The notes under the pieces were generated by a model. That model ran no database searches. It was not told the DNA's origin and saw nothing but the letters and a program-made list of their open reading frames with translations. A stretch of 4,492 nt of DNA from a virus. Its lineage: Duplodnaviria > Heunggongvirae > Uroviricota > Caudoviricetes. Of the stretch, positions 1-4,492 are shown in pieces. A program made the position numbers and the translations under genes. Numbering within the stretch: position 1 is the stretch's first letter; every line of letters starts with the position of its first letter. Location: the IMG/VR virus record IMGVR_UViG_2711768166_000010; one strand, 5' to 3'.

Positions 1-612
1 GTGAGCGAAATTAATTACCAGGCACTACGTGAGGCGGCAGAACGTGCAACTCCAGCAATGGAACGCCTGTTAATGTTGCCAGTTGATGATGATCTGATAA
101 GCGAACAGGAACTTAAAGATAGCGGTGTTGATATTGATGCCCTCAACGCCTTCAAATTTCTGGCCGGACCAGAAACCGTGCTGGCGCTACTGGATGAGAG
201 CAACGCATTAGAGGAAACGCGTATCAACGATGTTTGTCGTATTGCAGAACTAACAAAACAACTGGAGTTGGCAAAATCAAAACTCAACGAGCAGCGTGAG
301 TATTACGAGGGCGTTATCTCGGATGGAAGTAAGCGCATTGCAGAACTGGAAGCACGGGAAATAAAACCAGCCAAAGGTGAAGTTCTGGTCGTTGTATCTG
401 GTTTTACTGGTTGCGGAAAAAGCGCCATCGCCGGGGAAATAGAAATCGCGATGAAGGCTATTGGTGTACCGGTTCAGTGGACTAATGGTGATGCAGAAAA
501 GCGCATGACCGGCGCTGACTGGCTGACAGCAATTGAGATGTACAAACCAACTGTGCGCATTGTGGAAGTTAATGTGCCACGCGTCGCTGGCGTTCGCATC
601 AAAGGAGAGTGA
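1..612 (+). CDS. Ead/Ea22-like prophage early protein; GTG start sits at the window edge, so the true start may lie upstream
   Basis: Uninterrupted 203-codon frame ending at TGA 610-612. N-terminal QALREAAERATP segment followed by a charged, coiled-coil-like stretch (ELTKQLELAKSKLNEQREYYEGVISDGSKRIAELEARE) resembles what I remember of Ea22-family proteins; this is recall, not a search result. The next gene starts 1 nt after the stop. Confidence 0.55.
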   Translation: MSEINYQALREAAERATPAMERLLMLPVDDDLISEQELKDSGVDIDALNAFKFLAGPETVLALLDESNALEETRINDVCRIAELTKQLELAKSKLNEQREYYEGVISDGSKRIAELEAREIKPAKGEVLVVVSGFTGCGKSAIAGEIEIAMKAIGVPVQWTNGDAEKRMTGADWLTAIEMYKPTVRIVEVNVPRVAGVRIKGE

Positions 613-616
613 CGTG
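595..616 (+). repeat. Copy 1 of a 22-nt gene-junction motif CGCAYYAAAGGAGAGTGAYGTG (stop, embedded Shine-Dalgarno, GTG start)
   Basis: Direct reading: cgcatcAAAGGAGAGTGAcGTG here versus cgcactAAAGGAGAGTGAtGTG at 1465-1486, 19 of 22 identical. In both, the upstream gene ends R-x-K-G-E-stop and the next gene starts at a GTG 1 nt after the TGA. Confidence 0.6.
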
Positions 617-1231: not shown

Positions 1232-1240
1232 TGTCGGGAT

Positions 1241-1258
1241 GCCGCCCGAAAGGGCGGT
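1241..1258 (+). other. GC-rich stem-loop with GAAA tetraloop directly after the 70-aa gene; no clear U-tract
   Basis: gCCGCCC-gaaa-GGGCGGt: 6 G:C pairs plus a closing G-U, GNRA-type loop. Followed by taataaaaatgg (A-rich, not T-rich), so it is not a canonical intrinsic terminator. Confidence 0.35.
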
Positions 1259-1293
1259 AATAAAAATGGCTGAACTAATCGGAGAACAAAACG

Positions 1294-1482
1294 ATGAAAA
1301 ACCGTAAAGCAAAAATTCTTTTGACCTGTAGAAATGCTCGCGGCATCCAGCAATGGTTAAAACTCAGTAACCGCAGAATGGGGCTGTTCACAAATACGGC
1401 TGATATTGTGATGTGTTCACTTAACAAGCCCAGCGCGGCGCAAAACCGCTGGAAAAACCACTTGCGCACTAAAGGAGAGTGA
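1294..1482 (+). CDS. Small strongly basic hypothetical protein (62 aa), likely nucleic-acid binding
   Basis: ATG at 1294 is preceded by GGAGA (1281-1285). Contains 7 Lys and 7 Arg versus 2 acidic residues. Ends KGE-TGA with the next gene's GTG 1 nt downstream. Confidence 0.55.
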   Translation: MKNRKAKILLTCRNARGIQQWLKLSNRRMGLFTNTADIVMCSLNKPSAAQNRWKNHLRTKGE

Positions 1483-1486
1483 TGTG
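1465..1486 (+). repeat. Copy 2 of the 22-nt gene-junction motif CGCAYYAAAGGAGAGTGAYGTG
   Basis: See copy 1 at 595-616; 19 of 22 identical, same stop/SD/GTG architecture. Confidence 0.6.
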
Positions 1487-1702
1487 CCAACATTATTCAG
1501 GAAAAATTATCCGCGAAGAAGCAGAACGATAGAATTTCTGTTTTTCATTGTGTTTATCGTGTTGCTGATACCGATATCCCCGTTAATCCTGGTCTGGGTA
1601 ATCGGAAAATTAGTTGAACCAGTTATTGAGTTATATACCGACGTGACATCGGAGCCATTCAACGCACTGCACAGTAAAATTAATCCATATAAGGAAAACT
1701 GA
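1484..1702 (+). CDS. Small single-pass membrane protein (72 aa): basic N-terminus, one hydrophobic helix, about 30-aa C-terminal tail
   Basis: GTG at 1484 lies 4 nt after AAAGGAGAG (1471-1479). Basic N-terminus (FRKNYPRRSRT) followed by an uninterrupted hydrophobic stretch FLFFIVFIVLLIPISPLILVWVIG. Stop TGA 1700-1702; the next ATG is at 1704. Confidence 0.55.
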   Translation: MPTLFRKNYPRRSRTIEFLFFIVFIVLLIPISPLILVWVIGKLVEPVIELYTDVTSEPFNALHSKINPYKEN

Positions 1703-1703
1703 A

Positions 1704-2324
1704 ATGGCTTTTACCGACAAAGAAATGATTAAAGAAATCAAAGAACGTATCAGCAGCCTGGACGTACGAGACAATATTGAGCGCCGGGCTTATGAAATAG
1801 CGTTAGCCTCGCTGGAAGCTGAACCGGTGGCATGGCAGGTCACAATCACAAAAGACGGTCAGGACTCAGCCTCTACTATTTACCGTGACTGTGCAGAGAA
1901 AGATACATGGGTTCGGATACATGAGACACTTGGTTCTGTCGTACACGTCACTCCGCTTTACATGGCACCGCCAGCGCCGGTAATACAGGCTGATGTCGCG
2001 CAGGCAATTGAAAATCTCAAGCAGAAGTTAGTGGAATGCAATCGCTATAACTACTGCGCAGATGCAGTTAAAGGCGTAGAGGATGCTTGCCGCGCCACCA
2101 TGCTTCACGGTGTCAAACCTGTAAGCCAGACTTACAAGTTGAACAAGCTGTTTGGCAACTCTCCGGTAACTCCGGATGGTTGGGTTATGGTTCCTAAACA
2201 GGTAACGCCGGAAATCAGCAACGCGATAAACGTTGTGGGTCAACGCTGTACATGCGGAAATTGCTCTCAGCGGTTGTGGGATTTATTACTCGACGCCACA
2301 CAGCAAGGGGTTAACCGTGGCTAA
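1704..2324 (+). CDS. Hypothetical protein (206 aa) with a Cys-rich C-terminal half, possibly metal-binding
   Basis: ATG at 1704 preceded by AAGGA (1691-1695). Long clean frame. Cys clusters C-x5-C-x10-C (ECNRYNYCADAVKGVEDAC) and C-x-C-x2-C (CTCGNC). Stop TAA 2322-2324 overlaps the start of the next gene. Confidence 0.7.
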   Translation: MAFTDKEMIKEIKERISSLDVRDNIERRAYEIALASLEAEPVAWQVTITKDGQDSASTIYRDCAEKDTWVRIHETLGSVVHVTPLYMAPPAPVIQADVAQAIENLKQKLVECNRYNYCADAVKGVEDACRATMLHGVKPVSQTYKLNKLFGNSPVTPDGWVMVPKQVTPEISNAINVVGQRCTCGNCSQRLWDLLLDATQQGVNRG

Positions 2325-2601: not shown

Positions 2602-2603
2602 CA

Positions 2604-2630
2604 ATCCTCGCACTCGCGGGGATTTCTTTT
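2604..2630 (+). terminator. Rho-independent terminator 1 (8-bp GC-rich stem, ACTC loop, T-tract)
   Basis: ATCCTCGC-actc-GCGGGGAT (2604-2623; one G-U, rest Watson-Crick) followed by TTCTTTT (2624-2630), starting 3 nt after the ASCH gene stop. Confidence 0.6.
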
Positions 2631-2634
2631 ATCT

Positions 2635-2660
2635 GAACTCGCTACGGCGAGTTTTGTTTT
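2635..2660 (+). terminator. Rho-independent terminator 2 (7-8 bp stem, TACG loop, T-tract)
   Basis: (g)AACTCGC-tacg-GCGAGTT (2636-2653) followed by TTGTTTT (to 2660). Lies immediately upstream of the RBS GGAGA (2663-2667) of the next gene. Confidence 0.55.
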
Positions 2661-2673
2661 ATGGAGACAAGAA

Positions 2674-3018
2674 ATGTCAGATTTGGCTATGAAGGTTTTG
2701 AAATGGCAATCGACTGGCGATGTTGGCATCAGTAGCGCAACTCTTGCCTCAATCGCATGTGGACTGAAAAAGAATATCTATGGTCATCACTTCGGTGCTC
2801 CACATGACGCAGCCGATTTCCGACGATGCGTTGCGCTTGTCGAGCAGATTCCAGAAATCAGGGATTCATTCGACAAGGTTGCAAAGCGCGTTCCGGCATT
2901 CAAAGGAATCCTCAACGAATGGGATTCCCTCGTTGCTCTGTTGAAGTCTGAAATGAAGATACACGGAAACAAAGCACCAGAGACTTACAGGAGAATCAGC
3001 GAGTTACGAAAGGACTAA
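2674..3018 (+). CDS. Hypothetical protein (114 aa), isolated gene between the terminators and xis
   Basis: ATG at 2674 preceded by GGAGA (2663-2667) at 6-nt spacing. Clean 114-codon frame to TAA 3016-3018. No motif I can assign to a family. Confidence 0.7.
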   Translation: MSDLAMKVLKWQSTGDVGISSATLASIACGLKKNIYGHHFGAPHDAADFRRCVALVEQIPEIRDSFDKVAKRVPAFKGILNEWDSLVALLKSEMKIHGNKAPETYRRISELRKD

Positions 3019-3107: not shown

Positions 3108-3455
3108 GTGGAAGAAGAAATCTTCACTCGTGAAGAGGCAGCGTCGTATCTGAAGGTAGACAAAGGCACTATCACGCAGTGGATACGAAGTGGACGACTT
3201 CAGGCCGCAAAGATAAATCCAGATAAACCTAAAAGCCCATATCGCATTTGCAAGTCAGACTGCATTGCGGCGCTTAAGTCTGTGAGACACAATAGCGCGG
3301 TGAATGCGGTTGATGTGCAGGAGGTTAAAGCATGTCAATCAAACTACGCGGTGGCACGTGGCACTGCGATTTCGTCGCGCCAGATGGATCAAGAGTTAGA
3401 CGCTCTCTTGAAACATCGGACAAGAGGCAAGCGCAAGAACTTCACGATCGTCTGA
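3108..3455 (+). CDS. xis: Excisionase / AlpA-like helix-turn-helix DNA-binding protein (recombination directionality factor)
   Basis: GTG at 3108 preceded by GGAGA (3097-3101) at 6-nt spacing. N-terminal FTREEAASYLKVDKGTITQWIRSGRLQAAKI is a typical excisionase-type HTH. Sits immediately upstream of, and overlaps, the integrase gene. The 115-codon frame runs 124 nt into int, so the true C-terminus is uncertain. Confidence 0.7.
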   Translation: MEEEIFTREEAASYLKVDKGTITQWIRSGRLQAAKINPDKPKSPYRICKSDCIAALKSVRHNSAVNAVDVQEVKACQSNYAVARGTAISSRQMDQELDALLKHRTRGKRKNFTIV

Positions 3456-4492
3456 AAGCAGAAGCGTGGAGAGTAAAAAATCTCGGAGAATCACCGAAAA
3501 AGCTATTCAAGGAAGCCTGCATACGGTGGCTGCGTGAGAAATCGGATAAGAAGTCCATTGATGATGACAAGAGCATTATATCGTTCTGGATGTTGCACTT
3601 CAGAGAAACCATTCTCTCTGACATAACAACAGAAAAAATAATGGAGGCGGTAGACGGGATGGAAAACCGCCGCCATCGCCTGAACTGGGAAATGAGCCGG
3701 GACAGGTGTTTGCGGCTTGGCAAGCCAGTGCCGGAGTATAAACCAAAGCTGGCAAGCAAAGGAACGAAGACGCGGCATCTGGCAATACTTCGCGCTATTC
3801 TCAATATGGCTGTTGAATGGGGATGGATTGACAGGGCACCCAAAATATCAACACCACGCGTTAAGAATGGACGAATCAGATGGCTTACAGAGGAGGAATC
3901 GAAGCGCCTGTTTGCAGAAATTGCTCCTCATTTCTTCCCTGTGGTCATGTTTGCAATCACGACAGGCCTTCGCCGTTCCAACGTTACAGACCTTGAGTGG
4001 TCACAGGTCGATCTGGATAAGAAAATGGCATGGATGCACCCTGATGAAACAAAAGCTGGCAATGCGATCGGAGTTCCTCTTAACGAAACTGCATGCCAGA
4101 TATTAAGAAAACAGCAGGGTCTCCATAAGAGATGGGTATTTGTCCACACCAAACCTGCCTACCGAAGCGACGGAACAAAAACAGCAGCGGTAAGGAAGAT
4201 GAGAACCGACAGCAACAAGGCATGGAAGGGAGCGTTAAAGCGGGCAGGCATTAGCAACTTCCGCTTCCATGACCTGAGGCATACTTGGGCAAGCTGGCTG
4301 GTTCAGTCCGGTGTCTCTCTTCTCGCACTTAAAGAGATGGGAGGATGGGAAACTCTCGAAATGGTTCAAAGATATGCCCACCTTTCAGCCGGGCATCTCA
4401 CCGAGCACGCGAGCAAAATCGATGCGATTATAAGTCGCAATGGCACAAATACGGCACAAGAGGAGAACGTAGTTTACTTAAATGCGAGGTAA
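3332..4492 (+). CDS. int: Tyrosine site-specific integrase (phage integrase family) with N-terminal arm-type DNA-binding domain
   Basis: ATG at 3332 preceded by GGAGG (3320-3324). N-terminus MSIKLRGGTWHCDFVAPDGSRVRRSLETSDKRQAQELHDRLKAEAW matches the arm-binding domain pattern of lambdoid integrases. C-terminal catalytic motifs are present: TGLRRSN (Arg), HDLRHTWASW (His-x-x-Arg) and EMVQRYAHL (Tyr nucleophile). Stop TAA is at 4490-4492, the window end. Confidence 0.95.
   Translation: MSIKLRGGTWHCDFVAPDGSRVRRSLETSDKRQAQELHDRLKAEAWRVKNLGESPKKLFKEACIRWLREKSDKKSIDDDKSIISFWMLHFRETILSDITTEKIMEAVDGMENRRHRLNWEMSRDRCLRLGKPVPEYKPKLASKGTKTRHLAILRAILNMAVEWGWIDRAPKISTPRVKNGRIRWLTEEESKRLFAEIAPHFFPVVMFAITTGLRRSNVTDLEWSQVDLDKKMAWMHPDETKAGNAIGVPLNETACQILRKQQGLHKRWVFVHTKPAYRSDGTKTAAVRKMRTDSNKAWKGALKRAGISNFRFHDLRHTWASWLVQSGVSLLALKEMGGWETLEMVQRYAHLSAGHLTEHASKIDAIISRNGTNTAQEENVVYLNAR

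Follow-up and report, generated by a model that had tools for sequence, protein, structure and literature searches.

The window analysed here, a stretch of 4,492 nucleotides of phage DNA, is 100% identical to a segment of the E. coli E1 genome (NZ_CP104503) inside a prophage, a P22-like element integrated at thrW (tRNA-Thr) whose genes lie on a single strand in the order cI ... cIII, kil, recT ... ea22-like, small ORFs, ASCH, xis, int. Two small genes on the + strand of the window occupy the early-left region between ea22 and xis, the prophage setting that an earlier note, made from the sequence alone, had recognised. ORF1 (1294..1482) begins with ATG and encodes a 62-aa protein of PHROG 1380, and ORF2 (1484..1702) begins with GTG and encodes a 72-aa protein of the DUF4014 family (PHROG 1832) predicted to be a bitopic inner-membrane protein. 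The ORF1 stop codon (TGA, 1480-1482) is followed by a single base, T1483, and then by the GTG at 1484, in agreement with the gene limits and the 1-nt separation given in the earlier note, and the Shine-Dalgarno sequence of ORF2 (GGAG, 1474-1477) lies inside ORF1, 6 nt upstream of the GTG. RefSeq places CDSs at identical coordinates in NZ_CP104503, namely WP_045133282.1 (hypothetical) for ORF1 and WP_045133283.1 (DUF4014 family protein) for ORF2. The GTG start is supported by an ATG at the same position in other alleles and by conservation of the N-terminal residues as far as epsilon15 gp46. We rejected an alternative ATG at 1482 that overlaps the ORF1 stop, as it opens a frame of only 16 codons and is missing in alleles whose joint reads TGATATG. 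No promoter or terminator was found within or adjoining ORF1-ORF2, the nearest terminator-like sites lying at 2603-2654, and a promoter specific to the two genes, which would suggest expression in the lysogen, was rejected on that basis.

ORF2 matched Pfam PF13198 at 80.6 bits (cut-off 23.2; E 1.2e-22), with residues 2-72 aligned to positions 2-72 of the 72-position profile, and matched phrog_1832 over positions 1-72 of 72 (E 5.1e-39). At E <= 0.1 the Pfam search returned nothing beyond DUF4014 and a sub-threshold DUF7535, NCBIfam matches fell far under their cut-offs, and ORF2 belonged to none of the Kil and superinfection-exclusion families in Pfam and NCBIfam (lambda Kil, SieB, Imm etc.). 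In a 15-member alignment that includes epsilon15 gp46 and 933W L0067, ORF2 carries every DUF4014 invariant residue (P30, S32, P33, W38, G41, E45, E49, Y51, F59, L62, H63, K65, N67, P68, Y69 and E71) and shares the family length of about 72 aa. Identity is 71-75% to the Stx-phage and Bas106 proteins and 47% to epsilon15 gp46, and we found no essential difference between ORF2 and other DUF4014 members. Genomic position is likewise shared, since the genes for 933W L0067 (NP_049467) and epsilon15 gp46 (AAO06109) occupy the same niche between ea22-type genes and xis/int.

The earlier note had described ORF2 as a basic N-terminus followed by one hydrophobic helix, and closer analysis bears this description out. 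A basic head, predicted to be cytoplasmic (residues 1-17, nt 1484-1534, + strand), contains R6, K7, R11, R12 and R14 and leads into a proline-kinked transmembrane (TM) segment assigned from hydropathy (residues 18-41, nt 1535-1606, + strand), in which the 24 residues from F18 to G41 include no charged or strongly polar residue and the Kyte-Doolittle maximum over 19 residues reaches 3.08. The AF2 model places helices at residues 14-28 and 32-66, with the hydrophobic segment helical at a pLDDT of ~90. The remaining acidic and aromatic tail (residues 42-72, nt 1607-1699, + strand) is conserved and predicted to be periplasmic. Across 20 distinct DUF4014 proteins the N-terminal flank carries a net charge of +1 to +7 and the C-terminal flank -1 to -3, a charge asymmetry that, by the positive-inside rule together with hydropathy, predicts an N-in/C-out topology. 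Pooled pairwise dN/dS among 37 ORF2 alleles is 0.22, a value that ignores phylogenetic non-independence, and third codon positions vary most. By part, dN/dS is 0.27 in the head, 0.24 in the TM segment and 0.16 in the tail, making the C-terminal tail of ~30 residues the most constrained part of the protein. ORF2 is a real, selected protein-coding gene, a DUF4014 member with a single hydrophobic segment. Known small bitopic inner-membrane modulators include MgrB and SafA, which act on PhoQ, the Caulobacter proteins SidA and DidA, which act on the divisome, and T4 Sp. These proteins are close to ORF2 in size and in its inferred layout, where a short head in the cytoplasm is followed by a single TM helix and a short, conserved tail in the periplasm, but share no sequence similarity with it, and the likeness is an architectural analogy only.

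ORF1 has an unusually lopsided composition, with 7 Lys and 7 Arg against 1 Asp and 1 Glu (pI 11.65), just as the earlier note had counted (14 Lys/Arg versus 2 acidic residues). The protein matches phrog_1380 along its full length (positions 1-62 of 62; E 6e-26), and an exhaustive search returned 43 representatives of PHROG 1380, which is a narrow enterobacterial-phage orphan family. Its members, among them unannotated homologues in 933W and RCS47, share the 62-aa length and the three conserved motifs of ORF1, MKNRKAK (residues 1-7), SNRR (25-28) and SAAQNRWKNH (47-56), while a variable segment (residues 32-44) sets the allele group of the window apart from the common Stx-phage allele. Pooled pairwise dN/dS over 23 alleles is 0.33, again ignoring phylogenetic non-independence, and variation is greatest at third codon positions. 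A structured RNA or an antisense gene in place of ORF1 was rejected, with no Rfam match and an antisense frame that stays open in just 4 of 23 alleles. ORF1 is a real protein-coding gene under purifying selection. No match was found in Pfam (including per-member scans), NCBIfam or PADLOC, and profile searches of both the ORF1 and DUF4014 families against PDB chains returned chance matches alone (E 1.2 and 9.3). The AF2 model predicts an alpha-beta-beta-beta-alpha topology at moderate confidence (mean pLDDT 70.4, pTM 0.37); this topology raised the candidate of a HicA or dsRBD-like fold, which was rejected when neither sequence nor structural similarity was found. Composition and the conserved basic motifs make nucleic-acid binding by ORF1 plausible.

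What is conserved between the two genes is the joint itself. The sequence AAAGGAGAGTGATGTG (1471..1486, + strand) comprises the last three ORF1 codons (K-G-E), the stop, one spacer base and the ORF2 GTG, and the conserved element it represents, AAAGGAGAGTGAnNTG, combines KGE-stop, Shine-Dalgarno sequence and start. The window holds two exact copies of the joint where 0 are expected, the second of which (AAAGGAGAGTGACGTG; 601..616, + strand) links an Ead/Ea22-like gene (1-612, ending ...RIKGE) to the next gene (614-973). Spacing of 1 nt is not special to ORF1-ORF2, since it recurs at 612/614 and at 1702/1704; at the latter boundary the ORF2 stop (TGA, 1700-1702) and a single base precede the ATG of the next gene at 1704 within a different sequence (GAAAACTGAAATG; 1700..1706, + strand). 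Across sampled loci the joint connects DUF4014 to at least four unrelated upstream genes and ORF1 to at least five unrelated downstream genes, and is thus common to unrelated genes. The order in 933W is ORF1 homologue, joint, a 71-aa Cys-rich gene, joint, DUF4014, so that the arrangement in the window equals that of 933W without the third cassette, which the two joints enclose. Conserved linker or boundary sequences are a known feature of mosaic lambdoid genomes, belong to the modular-evolution idea of Susskind and Botstein, and have been discussed for HK620 and lambdoid phages. Like those boundaries, AAAGGAGAGTGAnNTG is a short sequence that borders otherwise unrelated genes at a site of cassette swaps; unlike them, it is also a complete translational coupling unit of three sense codons, stop, Shine-Dalgarno sequence and start, and therefore imposes a common C-terminal K-G-E on unrelated proteins. 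A further boundary lies upstream of ORF1, where a stem-loop at 1240..1259 (+ strand; UGCCGCCC-GAAA-GGGCGGUA; 8 bp, a GNRA loop and no U tract) starts 9 nt past the stop of the preceding gene (1019-1231). RNA folding of 1225-1300 gave -21.8 kcal/mol (z = -3.6), with 0 of 200 shuffles equally stable, and terminator prediction made no call at the hairpin. In 35 of 78 loci the same hairpin lies directly 5′ of the first codon of DUF4014 (junction GAAAGGGCGGTAAGAAATG or a close variant of it), and it marks a cassette boundary.

We then compared how often the two families occur side by side, using the best-scoring 80 loci per query in IMG/VR, a sample biased to E. coli prophages from which the adjacency fractions are to be read as estimates. 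In this sample raw adjacency was seen in 9 of 78 DUF4014 loci and 4 of 76 ORF1 loci; once dereplicated, the 39 DUF4014 contexts include 10 with ORF1 as the upstream neighbour and the 48 ORF1 contexts include 3 with DUF4014 as the downstream neighbour, and the partner is absent within 3 kb in 27 and 41 of these contexts, respectively. Adjacency is a minority state for both families. Of 5,426 complete E. coli genomes, 1,393 have at least one of the two genes and 106 have the two together; P1-like phage-plasmids and a lytic phage possess ORF1 but no DUF4014. Where the two genes are adjacent, ORF1 shares 60-95% nucleotide identity with the window and ORF2 a steady 82-86%, showing that their sequence histories are uncoupled. 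The earlier note had read ORF1 and ORF2 as a coupled pair, possibly a small regulator with a membrane effector; with adjacency of 10/39 and 3/48, both genes in only 106 of 1,393 genomes, uncoupled histories and a reused joint, that reading is not supported.

A functional two-gene module, in which a nucleic-acid-binding regulator or antitoxin is joined to a membrane effector or toxin and coupling sets their stoichiometry, is for these reasons highly improbable. The 1-nt stop-start spacing with a Shine-Dalgarno sequence inside ORF1 is what such a module would look like, and the neighbours recur together in a quarter of dereplicated DUF4014 contexts and in phage Bas106; yet the same spacing is found at other gene boundaries of the window, each gene is tied by the same joint to several unrelated genes, and in 933W a third gene sits between the ORF1 homologue and DUF4014. 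PADLOC at E <= 1 gave no match for either protein, nor did the toxin and antitoxin families of Pfam, and the two families showed no conserved co-occurrence and adjacency. A natural in-frame ORF1::DUF4014 fusion, P0079, is present on 17 contigs, but retains only half of the ORF1 sequence and of the TM segment and looks like a deletion product. The fusion and the adjacency in a quarter of DUF4014 contexts leave room for a loose functional association between the two genes. A different account of the same junction treats ORF1 as a non-functional protein, a conserved linker or leader ORF that delivers ribosomes to the next gene. Both ends of ORF1 are far more conserved than its middle, the C-terminal end shows the low synonymous divergence (pS 0.084) expected of a conserved DNA joint, another gene follows at 1 nt in 63 of 76 loci, and the alleles P0134 and P0136 read the middle in another frame before returning in frame. 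We nonetheless consider this account distinctly unlikely: the N-terminal decapeptide combines pS 0.225 with pN 0.000, dN/dS in the middle is 0.39, the 62-codon length is kept in 70 of 76 loci, the AF2 fold is compact at moderate confidence, and the SNRR core and SAAQNRWKNH are retained in distant PHROG 1380 members without the KGE joint. The distant motif retention and the decapeptide values in particular indicate that ORF1 is constrained as a protein and not just as a recombination linker.

Several functions proposed or conceivable for ORF2 can be weighed against the same data. The earlier note had raised Kil-like, division-inhibiting and superinfection-exclusion roles as possibilities for such small membrane proteins, and DUF4014 is the sole Pfam, NCBIfam or PADLOC family that ORF2 matches. 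Expression on induction of a host-killing, division-blocking or membrane-depolarising protein, Kil-like or similar to the small inner-membrane division inhibitors SidA and DidA, would suit a small bitopic membrane protein with a 24-residue hydrophobic helix encoded in the pL operon, the home of lambda Kil and similar host-takeover functions. We regard this as rather unlikely, given that ORF2 is unrelated in sequence to Kil and division-inhibitor families and that a separate annotated kil is already present in the same prophage; moreover, constraint is strongest in the tail outside the membrane and at particular residues of the TM segment (Pro, Ser, Trp and Gly), a pattern suggestive of specific recognition as opposed to generic membrane damage. 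That roughly a quarter of complete E. coli genomes have the gene intact says little for or against toxicity, since pL is repressed in lysogens. Database labels point elsewhere. An older release of epsilon15 gp46 bore the name 'acetyltransferase inhibitor protein' (NP_848254; note in g341c gene 23), and 'sugar acetyltransferase inhibitor' persists in some NCBI records. Such names imply a role in seroconversion through inhibition of an O-antigen acetyltransferase of the host or, more broadly, a change to the O-antigen in the manner of Gnarl proteins. A small N-in/C-out protein could plausibly bind an integral-membrane AT3 acyltransferase, and there are examples of small phage proteins with an effect on the O-antigen (Gnarl1-3, PMC12373910); together with epsilon15 gp22 (alpha-polymerase inhibitor) and gp28 (transacetylase repressor), Gnarl proteins form a set of small phage-encoded, in some cases membrane-embedded, proposed actors on O-antigen synthesis. 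Against this role, which we judge very unlikely, the current epsilon15 record lists gp46 as hypothetical and gives the transacetylase-repressor role to gp28, and the proposed epsilon15 inhibitors 'have not been investigated' according to a review (PMC9558356). Epsilon15 gp28 is not a DUF4014 member: it was considered as a relative (BLASTP E 0.015; hhalign probability 45%, confined to the TM segment) and rejected when 187 of 2,000 architecture-preserving, composition-matched shuffles scored at least as well as the real match, identifying the weak similarity as compositional. Neither gp22 (hhalign probability 0.16%) nor Mu E6/Gnarl2 (Mup07; 0.11%) shows detectable homology to DUF4014. In addition, DUF4014 is common in Stx and P22-like phages across many E. 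coli serotypes and sits here in an early lytic operon without its own promoter, unlike typical lysogenic-conversion genes. A second label, 'released from the phage upon host infection', is attached to DUF4014 in PHROG 1832 and RefSeq and is the single point in favour of a virion-borne ORF2, which is extremely improbable: whether the phage is lambdoid, P22-like or epsilon15-like, the gene is found among the early-left accessory genes by xis/int, far from the structural genes, and a protein of 72 aa whose TM segment is of the signal-anchor type is no obvious capsid passenger. Our literature search returned no source for that label, with no mention of DUF4014, of 'released from the phage ... upon host infection' or, in any relevant way, of L0067; papers on epsilon34, ZX5 and Kapi1 contain nothing on the DUF4014 gene, and exo-xis papers do not treat it. 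Both this label and 'acetyltransferase inhibitor' are without traceable evidence.

Together, these data make it likely that ORF1 and ORF2 are independent accessory cassettes that a P22-like prophage carries in its early-left (pL) operon, within the mosaic ea / exo-xis segment. Cassettes in this segment would be exchanged by recombination at the short shared joint AAAGGAGAGTGAnNTG, and ORF1 and ORF2 would be neighbours here only for that reason. Each exchange would leave the upstream gene with K-G-E and a stop, and supply the downstream gene with a Shine-Dalgarno sequence and a start one base on, so that any neighbouring cassettes end up translationally chained. For the proteins themselves no homologue of known function was found, and we therefore infer their modes of action from topology and conservation. 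ORF2 would be inserted N-in/C-out in the inner membrane, where its highly constrained periplasmic tail of ~30 residues and kinked TM helix may bind a specific envelope component, belonging to the host or to an incoming phage, soon after infection or induction; it would thus be a small protein that modulates a membrane protein, as opposed to a nonspecific membrane poison. ORF1 would be a separate small nucleic-acid-binding protein that acts through its three conserved motifs rich in Asn, Arg, Lys and Trp.

A bolder extension of the independent-cassette reading takes DUF4014 as an unrecognised class of early phage effectors, ORF1 as a new fold and the joint as a 'universal connector', and as a combination we find it doubtful. 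DUF4014 effectors, predicted to lie N-in/C-out with an invariant periplasmic tail (…LHxKINPYKE), could use that tail to bind a conserved enterobacterial envelope machine and switch it off, examples being an enzyme of O-antigen/ECA assembly or a route by which the DNA of competing phages enters. In the same reading the small nucleic-acid-binding fold of ORF1 would be new, and the KGE-stop/SD/start joint could let lambdoid, P22-like, epsilon15-like and P1-like phages swap ready-to-translate accessory cassettes.

ORF1 and ORF2 are members of already catalogued families and not a dedicated two-gene system, and the finding in itself matters little, concerning as it does a known variable accessory block in an ordinary mosaic region. 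Two misleading functional labels circulate for DUF4014. About a quarter of complete E. coli genomes, including those with medically important Stx phages, carry one or both genes, and this wide carriage makes ORF1 and ORF2 well-defined and cheap candidates for expression screening. Tightly 'coupled pairs' can arise by chance in the ea / exo-xis region, as the shared joint explains, and this calls for caution before operon-style coupling in phage accessory arrays is taken to mean that the genes function together.

We found that ORF1, a basic-protein gene at 1294..1482 (+ strand, ATG start, 62 aa), and ORF2, a membrane-protein gene at 1484..1702 (+ strand, GTG start, 72 aa), are genuine genes at the positions first read from the sequence, and RefSeq CDS annotation carries both with identical calls. 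As the earlier note had broadly described, ORF1 is strongly basic (14 Lys/Arg versus 2 Asp/Glu, pI 11.65), a single base separates its TGA stop (1480-1482) from the ORF2 start, and ORF2 opens with a basic N terminus (5 Arg/Lys among the first 14 residues) that leads into a hydrophobic segment, F18-G41. A GGAG lies 6 nt 5′ of the ORF2 start. Alleles drawn from 160 best-scoring IMG/VR loci and the window comprise 23 distinct 62-codon ORF1 and 37 distinct 72-codon ORF2 sequences, with pooled Nei-Gojobori dN/dS values of 0.33 and 0.22, respectively, and third codon positions the most variable in both sets. ORF1 is exactly 62 codons long in 70 of 76 loci. A 72-aa antisense ORF (1275..1493) that crosses ORF1 with third codon positions in common is open in just 4 of the 23 ORF1 alleles, and the ORF1-ORF2 region has no Rfam match.

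The earlier note had treated the two genes as a coupled pair, a reading not borne out by their distribution: adjacency is a minority arrangement, their histories are separate, and ORF1 occurs without the ORF2 family, Pfam DUF4014. Among best-scoring IMG/VR loci, ORF1 lies directly upstream in 9 of 78 usable DUF4014-centred loci and DUF4014 directly downstream in 4 of 76 ORF1-centred loci; with identical contexts collapsed, ORF1 precedes DUF4014 in 10/39 and DUF4014 follows ORF1 in 3/48, and the partner is missing within 3 kb in 27/39 and 41/48, respectively. Some part of the 409-bp pair is present in 1,393 of 5,426 complete E. coli genomes, with both genes in one place in only 106. Where the genes are adjacent, ORF1 is anywhere from 60 to 95% identical to its window counterpart and ORF2 holds steady at 82-86%, indicating that the two halves differ in history. 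ORF1 is found without DUF4014 in P1-like phage-plasmids and in one lytic phage. In two 76-aa homologues, P0079 (on 17 contigs) and P0077, ORF1 residues 1-32 are naturally fused in frame to DUF4014 residues 29-72, the deletion having taken the ORF1 C-terminal half, the junction, and the DUF4014 head with the first half of its transmembrane segment.

The tight spacing is explained by the junction itself, a 16-mer, AAAGGAGAGTGAnNTG, that encodes K-G-E, a stop, one spacer base and the next start, with an internal GGAG as Shine-Dalgarno sequence. Two copies of this joint occur in the window (601-616 and 1471-1486) versus none expected, and two in phage 933W (2770-2786 and 2988-3003 of extract L004, NC_000924). 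The joint places an identical C-terminal KGE on unrelated Ea22-like, ORF1-family and Cys-rich proteins. In sampled loci it connects four unrelated upstream genes, all ending in KGE (Cys-rich, ORF1 and two Ea22-like), to DUF4014, and ORF1 to five or more unrelated genes further downstream, including those for a 171-aa protein (36 loci), a Cys-rich protein (19) and DUF4014 (3). Since the joint links each gene to unrelated ones, the 1-nt coupling belongs to the cassette connector used in this region, not to ORF1 and ORF2 themselves, and the same stop-start spacing recurs in the window at 612/614 and 1702/1704. We conclude that the joint behaves as a cassette connector common to lambdoid, P22-like, Stx and P1-like phages. 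In 933W one joint copy lies between the ORF1 homologue and a downstream 71-aa Cys-rich gene, and the other between that gene and DUF4014. Recombination between two such joint copies would be expected to leave the window arrangement. The commonest downstream neighbour of ORF1, the 171-aa protein (locus L109 and 35 other IMG/VR loci; MALTHRELCQIAYKFLKRNGF…DAMGF…LIEAKCS…), carries a motif that resembles those of PD-(D/E)xK nucleases. In 933W, L0068 is annotated as 95 aa from a GTG at 2712 (2712-2999 of L004) and overlaps the ORF1 homologue in another frame; its true start is likely the ATG at 2784, placed by the joint, giving the 71-aa Cys-rich protein. A hairpin at 1240-1259, with a stable 8-bp stem, a GAAA loop and no U tract, lies 9 nt past the stop of gene 1019-1231. 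In 35 of 78 loci the same hairpin sits immediately before the DUF4014 start codon. It is a second kind of cassette boundary and may serve RNA processing, RNA stability or simply recombination.

ORF1 matches PHROG 1380 end to end; Pfam, NCBIfam and PADLOC gave no match. When 1.84 billion representatives were searched exhaustively with a profile, just 43 proteins were returned, nearly all of 25-112 aa. Distant relatives keep an N-terminal [KN]NRKA[KR], a central [RK]-x-SNR[RK] and SAAQNRWKNH near the C terminus, have lost the terminal LRTKGE, and family net charge ranges from +11 to +16. Its composition and motifs point to nucleic-acid binding as the leading candidate function. The AF2 model (mean pLDDT 70) forms a helix, three strands and a helix, a topology identical to that of HicA, which we excluded as a relative. 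The gene is often overlooked, and homologues are unannotated in 933W (L004, 2594-2782) and in P1-like phage RCS47 (L171, 3001-3186). In the 59-aa alleles P0134 and P0136, manual back-translation places the middle third apparently in another frame (…RRLAVGETQQPTDGVNETLRDDGLWF…) before a return to frame for the conserved KPSAAQNRWKNH motif, a change that would imply paired compensating frameshifts.

ORF2 is a full-length DUF4014 protein (80.6 bits versus a cut-off of 23.2) and a member of PHROG 1832, with 72-aa relatives in prophages and phages of E. coli, Shigella, E. albertii and Salmonella, including 933W L0067, VT2-Sakai, many other Stx phages, Bas106 and HK225; epsilon15 gp46 and g341c gene 23 share 47% identity with it. 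Across 185,579 species-representative genomes, DUF4014 occurs only in E. coli, Shigella and one contig labelled Xanthomonas pisi (L170, NZ_JPLE01000252.1, 427 bp); this contig holds a DUF4014 fragment with 73% identity to the E. coli phage protein and is probably enterobacterial DNA contaminating the assembly. F18-G41 comprises 24 residues without a charged or strongly polar residue (Kyte-Doolittle 19-residue maximum 3.08). Aligned family members share a basic head and then a hydrophobic segment in which P30, S32, P33, W38 and G41 are invariant; in the tail the invariant residues are E45, E49, Y51, F59, L62, H63, K65, N67, P68, Y69 and E71. In 20 distinct proteins the N-terminal flank carries a net charge of +1 to +7 and the 15 residues past the hydrophobic segment −1 to −3, an asymmetry that by the positive-inside rule predicts an N-in/C-out orientation. 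The AF2 model places helices at 14-28 and 32-66 with a kink at the Pro-x-Ser-Pro motif (pLDDT ~90 in the membrane part), and dN/dS marks the tail (0.16) as more constrained than the transmembrane segment (0.24) or head (0.27). In Bas106 (L005, PQ850599, 3001-3219) the gene is annotated from an internal ATG as 54 aa, which removes the conserved basic N-terminal head along with some of the transmembrane segment; the family alignment supports an upstream GTG start, giving 72 aa.

Two functions are attached to DUF4014 in databases. The PHROG 1832 description, repeated in some RefSeq records, is "released from the phage upon host infection"; a literature search found no source for this label, and a virion component is unlikely because four different phage types carry the gene within their early-left accessory block. 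The label "acetyltransferase inhibitor" originates in the first release of epsilon15 gp46, as quoted in the g341c record, and persists in some NCBI protein names. The current epsilon15 record lists gp46 as hypothetical and gives a "transacetylase repressor" role to gp28, and a 2022 review describes the proposed epsilon15 inhibitors as uninvestigated (PMC9558356). An hhalign comparison of gp28 and DUF4014 gives 45% probability over the head and transmembrane segment (BLASTP E 0.015). We rejected gp28 as a relative because this likeness is compositional: 187 of 2,000 architecture-preserving gp28 shuffles equal or exceed its score against the DUF4014 HMM, and gp28 is without the conserved tail. 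DUF4014 has no similarity to epsilon15 gp22 or to Mu E6 (Gnarl2 of PMC12373910).

All 4,492 bases of the window match the chromosome of E. coli strain E1 (NZ_CP104503) at 100% identity. There they make up the integrase end of a P22-like/lambdoid prophage that sits at a tRNA-Thr gene. Genes in the E1 record follow one another on a single strand: a cI-type repressor, cIII, kil, recT, several small genes, ead/Ea22-like, the small window ORFs, a gene with an ASCH domain, one for an HTH excisionase-like protein, and integrase. Within the early-left operon, this region corresponds to the part called 'ea' or 'exo-xis'. Neither promoter-like nor terminator-like sites adjoin ORF1-ORF2, placing both within a long early transcript. 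The first terminator-like hairpins 3′ of the genes, two in tandem with T-runs at 2603-2654 (+ strand), lie between the ASCH-domain gene, which they directly follow, and gene 2674-3018. No other such signal occurs on the + strand within 900-2700, and read-through would presumably need antitermination. Further along, an HTH_17 excisionase-like ORF (3108-3455, listed as 115 aa) overlaps the integrase ORF (3332-4492; RefSeq start 3338) by ~120 nt. The 206-aa ORF at 1704-2324 begins 1 nt past ORF2, and RefSeq divides it between a pseudogene fragment (1704-1826) and a CDS of 165 aa (1827-2324); its parts match different PHROGs (phrog_5117, residues 2-137; phrog_60, 2-205; phrog_14306, 87-137), suggesting a mosaic or fused cassette. 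The 119-aa product of 614-973 (phrog_1621) shows a zinc-ribbon match below threshold (TFIIB-type Zn_Ribbon_TF, E 1.7e-4, 21.5 bits versus a cut-off of 29) centred on CHH…C-x2-C and followed by a basic coiled-coil-like tail, and may be a small zinc-binding protein.

ORF1 and ORF2 are thus independent accessory genes, each under selection, that share a transcript and are linked in translation by a generic joint, and we are reasonably confident in this structural and evolutionary account as a whole. The ORF2 product would be expressed early and insert N-in/C-out in the inner membrane, where its tail and specifically shaped transmembrane helix may recognise a defined envelope partner on the periplasmic side; unranked candidate outcomes are that it excludes competing phages, remodels the envelope or interferes with division, and a Kil-like toxic role, as the earlier note proposed, is possible. 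The ORF1 product would be a small nucleic-acid-binding protein with its own separate role. Any specific target named for either protein would be very doubtful.

Conserved linkers at module boundaries of lambdoid phages are a long-established concept, both proteins belong to already catalogued, uncharacterised families, and the region is already known as variable; the finding is real but ordinary. Its main value is that it cautions against taking tight coupling for a sign of joint function, flags two DUF4014 database labels as unsupported, and points to two very widespread uncharacterised genes that are easily testable.
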